A stretch of 64,000 bases of DNA from Hormiphora californensis (taxonomy: Eukaryota > Animalia > Ctenophora): the NCBI GenBank assembly GCA_020137815.1, contig CM035359.1, positions 1,240,001-1,304,000 on the forward strand, written 5' to 3'. Below the pieces are notes generated by a model, which saw only the letters and a list, made by a program, of their open reading frames with translations, did no database searches and was not told the DNA's origin. How positions within the stretch are numbered: position 1 is the first letter of the stretch; each line of letters starts with the position of its first letter. A program made the translations under genes and the position numbers. Below are positions 1 to 57,436 of the stretch, one piece after another.

Positions 1-2475
1 TCAGGGACTCAAGAGTTTTACGTCTCAACTCCCTCTCCTCAAATGTCCTGTCCGGACCAATGTACACATTATGAAAATTATCCGACTGTCTCAGCTCCTT
101 TGCCTTCTTCAACAAGGTTAACAGATTCTCCCTCGACGACAGGGTGGCAATCATTGGCCGAGTCTTGTTCTCAGCTTTTGCTCCAACACGCTTCACGTCG
201 GTGAGTTTCATCCTTTCATTCAACTCCTCTAAAATTTTTTCTACAGATAACCTTGATTTCTATATCCATTTTACTAATTGAACCGGTACCCCGGCTTTCT
301 ACTGCTTTATGGTCCTCTTTAGCAGTGGCGGCTGTATCAGCTGGACCCTTCTCCTCCTCAAGATTGAAGATCATAAGGTTACTGCTCCTGTCAACTTCAT
401 CTGTGATCGGTGCAACCGATTTCTTGAGCACATTCTGTAACTTAGATGGGGCAGTAGCAGCAGCACAATTAGTCGAAATGACTGTGGAGAACGATTTCAT
501 TTCTCTCTTGACAGTGTCTGTTACAGCTTTAGCAGCAGAGAGGCCCTCATCCTGAAGATCAATCACTTTTTTCTGCAACTCAATAACCTGCTTCTGACAC
601 TTTAGCAACTCCTGCTCCAAACTTCGAACAACTTTCGAGTGTTCAATCTCCATTTCTTCTGCCGATTTCGATCTGAACTGTGTCTTGCGGGTCCAGGCCT
701 GGGTTATTTCCCCAACGCTAAAAAGTCTATCCTCCTAGTTAAACCCCAATTCCTTGCTTCTGCCAAGTCCCTATTCAGTAACACAAACATTCAAATCCTG
801 ACAGAAGGAACAAGGTATCTAGGCGCACCCCTTGGCTCTGATAGCTTCAGAGATCAGTTTGTCTCTGACCAAGTCAGTGGTTGGTGCCGTCAGCTAGAGG
901 AGCTTTCATCTGCCTCCGAGACGGAACCCCAAGCGTCATTTTCAGCTTTCTGTGTAGGACTATCGAAAAAGTGGCTGTTCTTGATGCGCACTACGCCCTG
1001 TATATCACACCTCTTTCTCCCTCTGGAGCAAACCATCAGGACTCTCTTCCTTCCCAAAACCATAACTCCTCACTTTAGCGACACCCACAGAAACATTTTC
1101 AGCCTCCCTGCTAGGAATGGAGGTATTGGCATATCTGATCCCACCAAAATCGCGGATGACGAGTATGCTAGATCTGTTGAGGCTACTGCCCCCCTCTCTG
1201 AACTTATAAACGAACAGAATACACACATTACCTCAGAGAGAGCGGACAGAGCCACAGTGGATCTCAGTGTTGCCAAACACAAAGTTCTAACGGCTAAGAG
1301 AGCGAAACAGAAAGCTGAACTTGAAACTGCATCAGCTGAACTAGACCCCCGACAACAACGTCTCCACGAGGAACTGTGCCAACGCGGAGCCTCCACCTGG
1401 GTTACAACCCTCCCGCTCGCTGAACACGGCTTTCTTCTCAACAAAGGGGAGTTTCACGATGCTATGGCTCTACGGTATGATTTCCCAATTGAAGGTATAT
1501 CCCATACCTGCATGTGTGGAAAGCCTAACAGTATGGAGCACTGTCTCTCATGTCCCCTTGGTGGCTACGTTCATCTCCGCCACAATCAAATACGGGACCT
1601 CACTGCGAATCTTCTGTCCGAGGCTGGATGCACAGTCCACAGACGTTACTATTGAACCACATCTCCTTCCCATCACTGGAGAGCATTTCAAATACAAGAG
1701 TGCCAACACCGATGATCAAGCCAGGCTTGACGTGTCTGCTAGGAAGGTTTGGTAACGAAGTTACCCCTCCCTTGCCGGCGCGCGAAGCGCGCCAAACGAA
1801 GGCCGCGAAGCGGCCTGAGTGAGAGTGTGAGGTGTCTTGGATACCAATAGGAAGGTATGGGTTGACATGGACAAAACCTTCCTTGACATCAGAGTGTTTA
1901 ACTCACGTGCCGACTCCAACATCAAAAAGTCATTGAAATCGGCCTTGGCTTCTCACGAGAAAGAGAAAAAGAGGGTGTATAACGAACGAATCCTGGAAGT
2001 AGAGAAAGCCTCTTTCACACCCATTGTGTTCTCCACCACCGGAACCATGGGACGCGAAGCAGAAAGGTTCTACCGCAGACTGGCAGTTCTCCTTTCCGGG
2101 AAAACCAAACAATCTATCCCTGATGCGGTACGCTACATCCGACAGAGACTATCTTTCTGTCTCCTCAAAACTCTCATTGTCAGCCTCCGGGGTTACCGAG
2201 GGAAGACGATTACACCATACTATTCCAGTAGTATAGATATTAATTTATTGTATGTTTAATTTATTACCACAGTGTGTTTATATATAATTTGATTGTTATC
2301 CGTATAATTTTAAACCTCTTTTCCTTTAAAATTTCGATCTGAATTGGTTAGTTCTGACTTGCGAGAAACAGTAGCCAAACAACCATGTCAATCCTCGGGC
2401 GATATCCACGTCAGCAGGAAATTCTGTTTTCGCTGTCTTGCATAATAAGCAGTTCACCGTCTTCTTTGGCGACAT
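1..2475 (-). pseudogene. LINE ORF1-like gene (Cys-containing N-terminus, coiled coil, RRM/CTD-like C-terminus), interrupted by a CRE insertion and a 58-bp insertion; runs off the window start
   Basis: Removing the CRE insert (13-bp TSD) joins MSPKKTVNCLLCK...QFRSK (ATG 2475) in frame to SAEEMEIEHSK (ORF 216-653). Removing 58 bp (TTTCTAC repeated at 238-244 and 296-302) restores ...AVEKILEELNERMKLTDVKRVG...RPMIATL...NVYIGPDRT, resembling CR1/L2-type ORF1 C-termini (RSSNLMIFNL motif). Confidence 0.75.
678..2330 (+). mobile_element. CRE-clade non-LTR retrotransposon, 5'-truncated (RT C-terminus, CCHC knuckle, RLE endonuclease), disrupted
   Basis: Motifs GYFPNAKKS, RYLG, GGIG, CMCG..HCLSC..RHNQIRD, RLDV, FLDIRVFN, HEKEKKRVY, FTPIVFSTTG. 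Exact 13-bp TSD ATTTCGATCTGAA at 665-677 and 2331-2343. A 7-bp frameshift near 1635 and a 108-bp insert at about 1747-1854. Confidence 0.9.
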
Positions 2476-2507
2476 CGCTGAAAGGTGAGGTGGGGGGTTG
2501 CCGCCAC

Positions 2508-2549
2508 CTCAATAAATAGTTTTACGTTGTAGTTGATGAAAGTTTGAAA
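2508..2549 (-). ncRNA. Ctenophore-type spliced-leader exon sequence (relict genomic copy)
   Basis: TTTCAAACTTTCATCAACTACAACGTAAAACTATTTATTGAG (42 nt). It recurs with different flanks at 53109-53152 and 54927-54969 and resembles ctenophore SLs as I recall them (TTTCAAACTTT...TTGAG). Confidence 0.7.
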
Positions 2550-2630
2550 GGCTAACTTCTCCTGAGAATGATACCTCAGACTCGGAGTTGGAGCAGTTCG
2601 AAATTTCACTGGATGGTGTTCCGGGAAGAC

Positions 2631-2664
2631 ACCCTAACCCTAACCCTACTTTAGCCCTAACCCT
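2631..2664. repeat. Short interstitial telomere-like (CCCTAA)n tract
   Basis: accctaaccctaaccctactttagccctaaccct. Confidence 0.7.
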
Positions 2665-3043
2665 AAAAAACCGATTGTCAGCACTCCCAAAACACAAAAA
2701 AGTATAAAAAAACGGAAACAATAAATCAATTCATCCTCGGATCCTCATGCTAAGTTCTTCTCGTTCCTCTGTTCCTCAGGTACTCCCAAAACACCCAGAT
2801 TTTAACACTGGCCGAATCTGGAAGCCGTGGAAAACGCCCGCCGGCATAAAAAACGAGGGCACGCGCGATGTTTTGGTGCCGTTGTTGAAACATATATTTG
2901 TCGCGCGTTCCATCAAAAGGGGGATCACGCGGCGCGGCGCAGTATAAATAAAAAAGTAGCTAAAAGATTTTGGAAAGTTTTTGAATTTTTAACTTTTTTA
3001 ACTTTTTTAAATTTTTTCATCCATATAATAATTTCCAAAATGT

Positions 3044-4520
3044 TCCTAACCCCGGAAAATCGTGGCTAATTGTGAAACCCCAATACGAAGAAACTGCAAG
3101 GGAAATGTTCACGGACGTCAACATCACTACAGACGGCCAACGCTACCTAGGATCATACATCGGAACAGAGGAGAGCCAGAGGGAATTTGTTCAGAACGAG
3201 GTTGCAAAATGGAACGAGGAAATCAGTCAACTCTGTGAAATTGCAATAAACGAACCACAGCTAGCCTATAGTGCATACACCATCGGGATCTCGAAAAGGT
3301 GGAGCTACCTCATGAGAACAACTCCAGGAATATCCCAACAACTTGGAGTCATCGAGAAAACCATCCACCAAAAACTTCTCCCTGCACTTACTGGCCAACA
3401 TGTTATCAGCGACACCTTGAGATCAGTTGCATCCCTCCCTGTTAGATTTGGAGGATTGGGAATTGATAACCCAGAACTATCAGCGGATTCGGAGTACAGC
3501 TTTTCTAAGTTCATCACAGAAGACTTGTCTGCAGCGGTTCTTGGCCAACACGAAACATTTCAGGTTGATAAAAACCAACAAACTGAGAAATCATCAATTA
3601 TTCGCCGTACCAAAAATGACATTCATCATCAGAAAATTGAGGAGATTCGAAGCAAAATGACTAGCGCCGAAAGCAGGAACCTTGATCTCCTGTCTGAGAA
3701 AGGTGCATCTTCTTGGCTTACTTGTCTTCCCCTCCAAGCATTAAACTTTACCCTGAATAGACAAGAGTGGCATGATGCTCTGTCTGCACGTTACAACTTG
3801 CCGCTGACAGGAGAAGCACTGCCTACCAACTGCGTGTGTGGAGAGGAAAATAGTATCGATCACTCAATTTCATGTAAGATCGGCGGTTTTGTATGCTTTC
3901 GCCACAACAACGTGAGAGACTTTATTGCAAGTGAGTTCAGTAATGTGTGTCATGACACGAAAGTTGAACCCCATCTGCTAAATGTACGAGGAATGAGTCT
4001 CCCAGAGGGAACTATTACGGCGGATGGAGCTCGCCTAGATATCAGTACACGTGATTTCTGGTCTAGCATGGATAACACCTATTTTGATGTGAGGGTATTT
4101 AATCCTAGGGTGGCATCCAACTCTAACCAGGCAATCTCTAAAGTGTATGAAAAACATGAGAGGGAGAAAAAGACTGGCTACCTTCATCGGGTCATTGAAG
4201 TGGAAAAATCCTCATTTACACCTCTGGTAATGTCCACGACGGGGGGTCTCGGTCGGGAATTCAAAAAGACACTGAAACAGCTAGCCGATAAGAAAGCTAA
4301 GAAAACGGGATACAACTACGACCAATGCATCCGTTATCTTCGACTCAGGCTATCTTTCGCCATGGTGCGATCAATAACTGTTTCCATCAGGGGGCATCGG
4401 GGTAGATTGAGGGGCGAGGGCAACAGGGACGAGCAGCTATATCAAGTGGGGCAATAGACTCATTTTATATTTAATTTATTACAGTTTTTATCATTGTTAA
4501 GTGTCTACACCTATTTATAT
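3044..4520 (+). mobile_element. Second, divergent CRE-clade retrotransposon, 5'-truncated, with open ORF 3072-4457
   Basis: PNPGKSWLIVKP, RYLGSYIG, GGLG, CVCG..HSISC..RHNNVRD, RLDI, YFDVRVFNP, HEREKKTGY, FTPLVMSTTGG. No TSD identified; the 3' boundary is approximate. Confidence 0.9.
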
Positions 4521-29739: not shown

Positions 29740-30709
29740 CGGTGGCAGATTCCGGCCAAGTGTTTTTTCAATCAAGTGAAATATTTTTGTTTGAAGTTTT
29801 ATAAAAATTTTATTTCAAAATAAAAATAAACATGTCGTTAAAATTATTGGCCGGAATCTGCCACGCGGGTGGCAGATTCCGGCCAAGATTCTCAAAAAAC
29901 CTTGGCCAGAATCTGCCACACACGTGGCAGATTCTGGCCAACCAACTAAAACTTGTTTATATCAAAGCGAAAACCACTGTACCCGACTAATTTTGATACG
30001 CTGAATCACGTAAGATACTTTTCCAATCCCTCAGAGGTCGGGAAAGTGTCATAATTGACCATAATTGGGTCTAATTGACCCCATTTACAACTTTTCACCT
30101 TGAAACGATAGACGCTTATGTGAAGGCACTTTTCCGACTAATTTTGATACGCTGAATCATGTAAGCAACTTTTCCAAGTCCTCCGAGGTCGGGAAAATGC
30201 CTTAATTGGGTATAATTGGGTCTAATTAGCCTTAATTGCTCAATTAGGGCACTTTGCCGATCTCTGAGGACTTGGAAAAGTTGCTTACGTGATTCAGCGT
30301 ATCAAAATTAGTCGGAAAAGTGCCTTCACATAAGCGTCTATCGTTTTAAGGCGAAAAGTTGTAAGTGGGGTCAATTAGACCCAATTATGGTCAATTATGA
30401 CACTTTCCCGACCTCTGAGGGATTGGAAAAGTATCTTACGTGATTCAGCGTATCAAAATTAGTCGGGTACAGTGGTTTTCGCTTTGATATAAACAAGTTT
30501 TAGTTGGTTGGCCAGAATCTGCCACGTGTGTGGCAGATTCTGGCCAAGGTTTTTTAAGAATCTTGGCCGGAATCTGCCACCCGCGTGGCAGATTCCGGCC
30601 AATAATTTTAACGACATGTTTATTTTTATTTTGAAATAAAATTTTTATAAAACTTCAAACAAAAATATTTCACTTGATTGAAAAAACTCTTGGCCGGAAT
30701 CTGCCACCG
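29740..30709. mobile_element. 970-bp near-perfect palindromic DNA transposon with TA TSD
   Basis: TA|CGGTGGCAGATTCCGGCCAAG...CTTGGCCGGAATCTGCCACCG|TA. Confidence 0.9.
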
Positions 30710-30950
30710 TAGTTTATACTTTATATCAGCAAGGATTTATTGCGGCAGAAGATCCTTCACTTCTCGTCTTACAACTTCTCTTCTCGTCTTACAACTTATC
30801 ACTTCTCGTCTTACAACTTATCACTTCTCGTCTTACAACTTTCACTTCTCGTCTTACAACTTATCGTTTTGCATCGAATTTCGTCTTCTTGTTTTTAACA
30901 GTACCACAGCAAATGGCTACCTTGTAGCTTTTATACAAAACAGCGAAAAA

Positions 30951-31889
30951 ATGGAGATCGACAAAAACTGGTACGATGAATGGACACAAAAAGTGAAGAG
31001 GCTACCAGTCACCATGAACAACGTTCTGGGGAGAGAATGGGAGGCCGACCAGAAGAACGGATGGAAGGACGCCACTTGGCAGATAATGCGAGGTGAAAAC
31101 TGGGATGCTTTGATTGAACTAATGGAAAATACGGTTAAAATGTACAAACTGCTGAACGTTGCCGATGATATCTTCGCCAAGTCCACTACAAATGAATCTG
31201 TCGAGCAAACAGCTGTGGACAGACTAAGTGCAGACAAGGAGACCGCAGATTGCGAGGAAACGTTGGCGGATATGGAATCGGTCGGTAATGCATCTGAGTC
31301 ACTATCCTGGATGCTTGATCGCAAATTTGAATCAGATGATTATGCATCTGGCCCTGGGTCAATATCGATGTCTAGTGAAATTGCTTCCTATAAAGAGGAA
31401 AAAACGGGACCCACTGACAAGCGGCAGAATGTTATCGTGTTTTTACCTGCAGACATGGATGGCTCTATTCATGATGAGGCGATTGAAAAAGCTTTTGTAT
31501 ACCTTGGGTGTGAACAATTTAGTATAATGAACACGGAAATGGTCAGGGACAGAGGTGAGGACTGCAACGGGAAAATTGTACTTAGAGTACAAATGAACAC
31601 AGTAAAACAAGCATCAAAAGCCCTTGCTAATGCGTACAAACTGAAGAACTACCCTGTGCCTGGAATCTACATTGCCAAGGATATGACATACCATCAACGG
31701 CTAAAGATGCGAGAACTTGTGAAGACTCTACGGTACAGGATAGAAATGCTACCAAAGTACCGATGGAAAATTGTTGATTGGGAAGTGGTTAACGTCGGTC
31801 GTTTCAAGAAACAAGAGCAAGATTTCAAGCATGATTTGATGAACAGTTATAGTGGTTCACTGGATAGTATTTCTAGTGGACCACTATAG
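30951..31889 (+). CDS. Stand-alone LINE-ORF1-like protein with no ORF2 downstream
   Basis: C-terminal KRQNVIVF...LRVQM..ALANAYKLK...IYIAKDMTYHQRLKMRELVKTL resembles the ORF1 RRM/CTD. AATAAA near 31937 and 31992; about 21-bp tandem repeats upstream (30757-30862). Confidence 0.65.
   Translation: MEIDKNWYDEWTQKVKRLPVTMNNVLGREWEADQKNGWKDATWQIMRGENWDALIELMENTVKMYKLLNVADDIFAKSTTNESVEQTAVDRLSADKETADCEETLADMESVGNASESLSWMLDRKFESDDYASGPGSISMSSEIASYKEEKTGPTDKRQNVIVFLPADMDGSIHDEAIEKAFVYLGCEQFSIMNTEMVRDRGEDCNGKIVLRVQMNTVKQASKALANAYKLKNYPVPGIYIAKDMTYHQRLKMRELVKTLRYRIEMLPKYRWKIVDWEVVNVGRFKKQEQDFKHDLMNSYSGSLDSISSGPL

Positions 31890-32181: not shown

Positions 32182-57436
<25,255 letters not shown>

Follow-up and report, generated by a model that had tools for sequence, protein, structure and literature searches.

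How does a spliced leader (SL) come to stand in genomic DNA directly ahead of a retroelement gene? The question is raised by a 64,000-nucleotide (nt) stretch of the ctenophore Hormiphora californensis (assembly GCA_020137815.1, contig CM035359.1, positions 1,240,001 to 1,304,000; hereafter the window), at whose left end a broken ORF1 gene of a long interspersed nuclear element (LINE) runs on the minus strand from 2475 to 1. A 42-nt, A/T-rich motif that ends ATTTATTGAG lies on the same strand from 2549 to 2508, with the ATG at 2475 following 32 nt downstream, in agreement with a first-pass annotation that had placed it directly 5′ of a short untranslated region (UTR) and the start codon. That annotation had proposed that trans-spliced RNA of a retroelement was reverse transcribed and inserted, and its proposal is supported by an empty insertion site, by differing leaders on other copies of the element and by a second splice acceptor. 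We consider it probable that RNA of this element was trans-spliced and then retrotransposed nearly full length.

Analyses of the motif (2508–2549, minus strand) indicated, on sequence grounds, that it is a spliced leader of the ctenophore type. Comparison with ctenophore leaders, which had been proposed at first pass, gave a match to the published Hormiphora leader with an alignment score of 42.5, a value reached by none of 5000 shuffles (best shuffle, 31). The two sequences have in common their first 11 bases (the TTTCAAACTTT start) and their last five (the TTGAG end). The published leader is 44 nt long, is present on 56% of Iso-Seq reads and opens with GAG followed by TTTCAAAC (PMC8527503). 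Upstream of other leader copies in the genome, the consensus of loose ends opens with AG in four of the five runs shown, and this AG is absent from the copy at 2549. Because most other copies, like the published leader, have AG at this place, the leader at 2549–2508, which had been described as full, is likely nearly full, at 42 nt, and short of its two or three starting bases. The sole AG within these 42 nt is formed by the final two bases. Genomic leader copies are numerous in ctenophores (718 in H. californensis and 491 in Mnemiopsis leidyi, counts that the accessible parts of the source give without explanation), and they confuse gene annotation (PMC8527503).

To place the locus among other copies, we used contigs assembled from public sequencing runs, labelled X1, X4, X5, X7 and X11. 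The X1 contigs have the same organism label as the best-matching runs, X7 and X11 come from a related organism, and one run was guessed to be RNA. Counts of contigs and of loose ends refer to the contigs listed, the tool's threshold for a join was 31 letters, and the comparisons of leader types, empty sites and 5′ flanks covered four DNA runs. In these four runs the summed contig depth was 2.5–5.2 × 10⁵ on the leader versus 50–400 on the flank, and the leader was flanked on both sides by unrelated sequence. Between 12 and 21 contigs per run departed from its 5′ end into flanks that are unrelated (agreement 0.41–0.45), so the case in which the motif occurs only within a longer repeat whose copies share their flanks, raised at first pass, does not apply. 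The guessed-RNA run gave four contigs on positions 1–3000, all of them within 2508–2549 and two ending exactly at 2508, a pattern compatible with a leader carried by many RNAs, but contigs of this kind cannot reveal RNA ends; ORF1 had no cover in this run, and no RNA run was listed as matching positions 1–3000, which says nothing either way on expression. A degenerate leader pattern matched 119 loci on metagenome contigs, which we judged to be chance matches and rejected as leaders, none being leader-like among the best 40 (best score 44).

The state of the insertion site in other individuals and in the related organism bears most directly on the origin of the leader. At least four contigs from three of the four runs (X1 record 8, X7 records 31 and 32, and X11 record 16) matched the upstream target flank (2547–2620) down to 2547 and then continued into 118–356 other letters instead of the leader. 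Of these, X1 record 8, with a depth of 49.5, was the only cover of the flank in X1, and the three contigs from the related organism had 6–8 differences in 74. The filled site was found in X5, where record 24 consists of the flank and the leader (depth 252) and record 22 of the leader and the UTR (depth 257). The insertion site is polymorphic, its empty state is common to the related organism, and the insert begins at the leader within a three-base overlap, as positions 2547–2549 (TTT) match both the leader and the empty-site flank and form a 3-nt microhomology at the 5′ junction. Since the empty site is leaderless, we conclude that the leader arrived together with the insert.

The leader is followed by a 30-nt segment of 5′ UTR (2478–2507, minus strand) that runs from GT through a pyrimidine tract to CAG. 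The junction of leader and UTR, at 2508/2507, reads TTGAG/GTGGC and thus AG/GT, and it lies within a predicted hairpin (2486–2511, minus strand; −15.6 kcal/mol) in which the leader-terminal UGAG and the first UTR bases would pair with the UTR. None of 200 shuffles folded as well as this 8-bp stem (z −3.4 to −3.6), which spans the junction and part of the pyrimidine tract further downstream. Both the AG/GT reading and the hairpin had been pointed out previously and were reproduced here. A feature beyond the first-pass annotation is a second acceptor, the CAG at 2480–2478, which stands 2 nt before the ATG and is preceded by 80% pyrimidine.

The UTR is multi-copy (UTR/flank depth ratios of roughly 2.2, 3.9 and 9.9), and its copies showed that the leader is exchanged from copy to copy, which the earlier description of it as hard-wired understates. 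Three X7 and two X11 contigs contained the UTR and TTGAG to 2512 and then a leader of the Hormiphora type (agreement 0.97 and 0.87, respectively), and in X7 record 30 (depth 7.15) this UTR was joined to the leader of the window type. An X5 contig of the UTR (depth 974) breaks at 2512, and the depth starting at 2483 in X5, 507, would by depth arithmetic comprise 257 for the window's leader and about 250 for another branch. In one further X7 contig (depth 55), position 2477 was joined straight to 2508, with exactly the 30-nt GT...CAG segment missing. One contig each in X7 and X11 held a diverged sister 5′ end, leader-headed and with a C-rich UTR that ends in TTTCAG and is followed by ATG. Among the contigs listed, none exited the UTR ahead of TTGAG, hence no copy with another upstream acceptor was found; the first-pass annotation had asked whether other copies have an acceptor AG in place of the leader. 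A further candidate for a join at the downstream acceptor, an X1 contig of depth 11.4 that has G>C at 2480 and stops at 2483, was too weak to count.

The gene behind the leader is in three pieces. The 5′ piece (2332–2475, minus strand) holds the start codon and a cysteine-containing N-terminus and is 80–88% identical to the intact relatives P0001 and P0003; the middle piece (297–677, minus strand) holds a coiled coil and the start of an RRM, by similarity to an intact relative; and the 3′ piece (1–247, minus strand) holds the RRM as well as a C-terminal domain (CTD), with 90% identity to residues 166–247 of P0001. The first two are separated by a later insertion on the plus strand (678–2330), a 5′-truncated fragment of another non-LTR (long terminal repeat) element, presumably one with a restriction-like endonuclease (RLE) of the RLE/CRE-like kind, which is bounded by a 13-bp target duplication (665–677 and 2331–2343). 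Contig 12 of X4 departs from the window sequence at 2331, the edge of this nested 1.65-kb insertion. A second later insertion, of 51 nt (245–295), breaks the frame and is bounded by a 7-bp duplication (238–244 and 296–302). As a consequence of the two insertions, the window copy cannot encode an intact ORF1. The intact 269-residue relative P0001 spans both breaks at 80–90% identity. At the window edge the 3′ piece has reached residue 247 of 269 in this relative; the stop codon is expected about 22 codons past the edge, and ORF2, the tail and the target duplication therefore lie out of view.

Structural modeling of P0001 supported the assignment of the 2475–1 gene as a LINE ORF1 of type II, with the order coiled coil, RRM and CTD. 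The model, built from a 19-sequence alignment (mean predicted local distance difference test score, pLDDT, 72.9), consists of a long helix followed by an RRM and a CTD of small size. All 10 Foldseek matches with E ≤ 0.001 were human L1 ORF1p (E 1.3e-6 to 2e-4), and VIA placed human L1 ORF1p at ranks 1–3 of 48,161 chains (Z 10.0, 9.6 and 9.0). This domain order defines ORF1 type II, which is found in the L1, CR1, L2 and R1 clades, and the ORF1 type alone does not define a LINE clade (PMC4120745). The same order and fold are shared by the type II ORF1 proteins of L1, CR1 and L2 and by ORF1-only, HAL1-like elements, and assignment to a clade needs ORF2. A profile search with ORF1 gave 12,289 cluster representatives at E ≤ 0.001, and the best ESM Atlas score for P0001 was 0.89, to PHD-bearing unnamed clusters, which we treat as a lead only. 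Pfam returned no match at the curated cut-off for eight window pieces and P0001 and P0002, a sequence search of the PDB with the alignment returned only weak matches of coiled-coil type (best E 0.016), and no related locus was found among viral or prokaryote contigs. Close ORF1 relatives were on contigs of 0.6–2.5 kb, which fits either an ORF1-only element or fragmented assemblies. A search for longer fused proteins, itself a weak one, found no ORF1-ORF2 product, only gene models fused to host-type sequence.

Based on these observations, we propose that the host spliceosome would add the leader to RNA of the ORF1 element ahead of reverse transcription, and that this RNA would be reverse transcribed almost to its cap and then inserted, to give the recent, now broken copy in the window. 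Each leader-headed copy would stem from a separately trans-spliced transcript. Integration was probably by target-primed reverse transcription, which is established for non-LTR elements and with which the TTT shared over 3 nt by leader and flank at the 5′ junction is in keeping. The two later insertions then disabled ORF1.

A bolder extension, which we hold tentatively and think somewhat more apt to fail than to stand, is that the family is promoterless and rebuilds its 5′ end in every cycle by trans-splicing at the terminal AG of the old leader. Read-through from a host promoter into a leader-headed copy would be re-spliced at that AG and a fresh leader swapped in, which would trim the host flank, cap the RNA for translation and restore an identical structure. 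Because the only AG of the leader is its terminal one, such re-splicing would leave no relic and would free the family from needing its own promoter.

Several points weigh against these proposals. Those that concern re-splicing are the context of the leader-terminal AG, which is preceded by 50% pyrimidine versus 80% for the downstream CAG, the fact that GAG is a weak splice acceptor, and the hairpin, which would mask this AG. The copy joined at the second acceptor was seen in a single X7 contig, one listed without the lengths of its two sides. In sample S1, a single contig (depth 110–157) puts the window-type leader, to 2533, on all collapsed copies, a pattern that fits simple inheritance of the leader as well. 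The evidence on other copies comes from short assembled contigs (pieces of k-mer graphs) and not from long reads; the leader side of X5 record 24 is 27 letters, under the 31-letter rule; and a leader-only allele, which in such contigs would look like the filled one, may exist here. Finally, the 3′ end, poly(A), target duplication and ORF2 lie beyond the window; for this reason retrotransposition is something we only infer, and the family may be ORF1-only.

Among other explanations, the one that survives best is that the leader was captured as an internal promoter, acquired rarely and mostly inherited, with transcription starting from its first base and the hairpin shielding AG/GU from splicing. 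The S1 copies, with their shared leader, are as expected from this explanation, as is the strong hairpin; judged by eye, the sister 5′ end, known from one contig of X7 and one of X11, would pair in a similar way. The leader of Ascaris is reported to act as an internal promoter. Relict leaders have also been proposed as basal promoters in dinoflagellates (PMC5585692). However, copies whose divergence is only about 8–10% carry leaders of at least two classes and use two acceptors, and such variation among close copies would need repeated splicing. We therefore regard capture as unlikely, and note that the frequency of leader renewal is all that sets it apart from trans-splicing before each insertion.

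Next in plausibility, and improbable, is site-specific insertion into existing leader copies or SL RNA genes, right after the exon AG, with the leaders differing because the targets differ. This would explain differing leaders at one join without splicing; potential targets are very abundant (the 718 and 491 copies of two ctenophores, PMC8527503), and non-LTR elements that target SL exons are known (PMC4640811). Against it, the empty site at this one locus is leaderless in three of four runs, so that this explanation would require two insertions in succession at the same spot. In addition, upstream flanks are unrelated between copies, with no shared SL-gene promoter, and the copy joined at the downstream CAG has the signature of splicing. 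Known SL-targeting elements have one RLE-type open reading frame and no type II ORF1, which also weighs against insertion of this kind.

An SL RNA gene, with its exon and a GT donor in a hairpin, that adjoins or is fused to the ORF1 gene has very little in its favor. An AG/GT within a hairpin figures among the features listed for SL RNAs (PMC12582326) and is present at this locus. However, five contigs in X4 and three in X11 contain the leader followed by GTAAG, loci that by their sequence look like true SL RNA genes, and the locus at 2508 reads GTGGCG instead and has nothing further in common with them. No Sm-like site was found in the 158 nt after the leader at 2508, and Rfam gave no match in the 64,000 bases at the gathering score. 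On the basis of the GTGGCG, the lack of an Sm-like motif and the lack of an Rfam match, we conclude that the 2508 locus is not an SL RNA gene; the site is, moreover, empty in other individuals. The 3′ tail of the nested element (2296–2312) contains a 10-nt word in common with the sequence after GTAAG in the X4 leader loci, probably by chance; such non-LTR elements target SL genes in trypanosomes.

An assembly chimera at a high-copy repeat, a caveat raised for the Schistosoma cases (PMC5832876) and encouraged by noisy assembly elsewhere in the window (the indel-rich tandem duplicate at 51858–55462), can be practically dismissed, as the leader-UTR join was found in independent runs with 0–1 differences (X1 record 1, X4 record 12 and X5 record 22), the flank-leader join was found in X5 record 24, likewise with 0–1 differences, and the two X5 pieces match in depth (257 and 252).

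A self-search of the window identified a second leader copy (53109–53152, minus strand) within one of the introns of an MCTP-like (C2/PRT_C) host gene. It is in sense orientation within this intron and is followed by GA, which provides no donor, as part of G-ATG. The similarity between the copies at 2508 and 53109 (E 3.7e-12) had been said to be confined to the motif, and this held: the best local alignment of the 261-nt regions around them was the leader plus one G, with 42 of 45 columns identical. A third copy (54970 to 54926) falls within a tandem duplicate, 1.8 kb long, of the region that holds the second and hence is not independent. This duplication (51858–55462) is 96.6% identical, has many single-base indels and repeats host exons; it is possibly an assembly artefact. 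Target duplications sought at the 53152 copy were limited to AT-rich repeats of 6–7 nt, which were not significant, and the fold downstream of it was no better than that of shuffles (68 of 200). An inverted repeat of about 15 bp, noticed by eye (53005–53025 and 53153–53168), brackets this copy together with about 100 nt downstream, and one of its arms is the splice donor of the host gene. Leader followed by G-ATG was also found in 8–15 contigs per run, with at least two recurring continuations, and such loci may be leader-headed short elements or retrocopies. Tandem partial leaders were observed on genomic contigs of X1 and X5 (depth 18.9 and 79.2).

Other features of the window were noted in passing. 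The nested fragment at 678–2330 and a second one at 2985–4480, which we also take to be RLE/CRE-like, are plus-strand 3′ fragments of related non-LTR elements with 38% protein identity, and the nested one holds a high-copy insert of about 75 nt near 1750–1825. A degenerate telomere-type hexamer repeat (2631–2666), 80 nt upstream of the insertion, edges a very high-copy repeat. Within the MCTP-like gene is a 656-residue open frame (49817–51787) with a weak C-terminal GIY-YIG match, which we assume to be Penelope-like. A plus-strand frame of 403 residues (30678–31889) has a C-terminal part that by eye resembles the RRM and CTD of ORF1, and a Pfam scan of it was empty.

The closest known cases come from flatworms. 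In Schistosoma mansoni, six leader-bearing retroelement loci were described, for which, in the accessible text, the authors leave room for assembly chimeras (Boroni et al. 2018, PMC5832876), and in 24 flatworm species 597 partial-leader loci near LTR and LINE elements were reported and, as far as that text goes, set aside (Calvelo et al. 2025, PMC12582326). As here, the leader is fused to LINE or LTR elements, and the authors suggest integration of trans-spliced element RNA (PMC5832876, PMC12582326). The flatworm leaders are mostly partial and the suggestion appears in those sources as an untested hypothesis, whereas the present case is from another phylum and has a near-full leader, an empty site, and differing leaders and two acceptors on one element. 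In dinoflagellates, retrogenes keep relics of DinoSL, and an AG in the old leader can serve as the next acceptor (PMC5585692, PMC12014239). The mRNA recycling described there (Slamovits and Keeling 2008) resembles our proposal in that trans-spliced RNA, leader included, undergoes reverse transcription and insertion, but it concerns, in the accessible parts of these sources, mostly retrocopies of host genes that accumulate relics (PMC5585692, PMC12014239), whereas here the passenger is a retroelement and the leader's only AG is terminal. No leader relic was found before or after the leader at the 2508 locus, which has a single leader, unlike the tandem relics of the dinoflagellate type.

The RNA step that we propose has a counterpart in Hydra, where about 30% of transposon Iso-Seq reads bear a leader (PMC12220107); the accessible parts of that report describe this at the RNA level only, with no genomic leader-headed copies. 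In NeSL elements of nematodes and CRE/SLACS elements of trypanosomes, a leader exon is likewise directly 5′ of the element, but in those cases the leader is part of the target and already stands at the empty site, whereas here the empty site is leaderless. Leader-headed retrocopies as such are already known; what appears to be new is their phylum, the test at an empty site and the fact that one element exchanges both its leaders and its acceptors. In the open-access literature (subscription papers and Repbase being outside the search), we found no leader-headed retrotransposon in ctenophores and no exchange of leaders between copies.

Non-LTR elements are known to regenerate their 5′ ends by an internal promoter, by a self-cleaving ribozyme or by insertion into a transcribed repeat. 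Trans-splicing by the host would be a further solution, one suggested for flatworms, and the locus at 2508 brings together a site known without its insert, leaders that are swapped between copies and a choice of acceptors. The question can be addressed in existing long-read genomes and Iso-Seq data. Leader-headed retrocopies are a possible explanation for the 491–718 dispersed leader copies of ctenophores; if the promoterless cycle is real, many of these hundreds of unexplained copies would be the heads of retro-insertions and not SL RNA genes, and each insertion would record the leader class in use in the cell where the element jumped.

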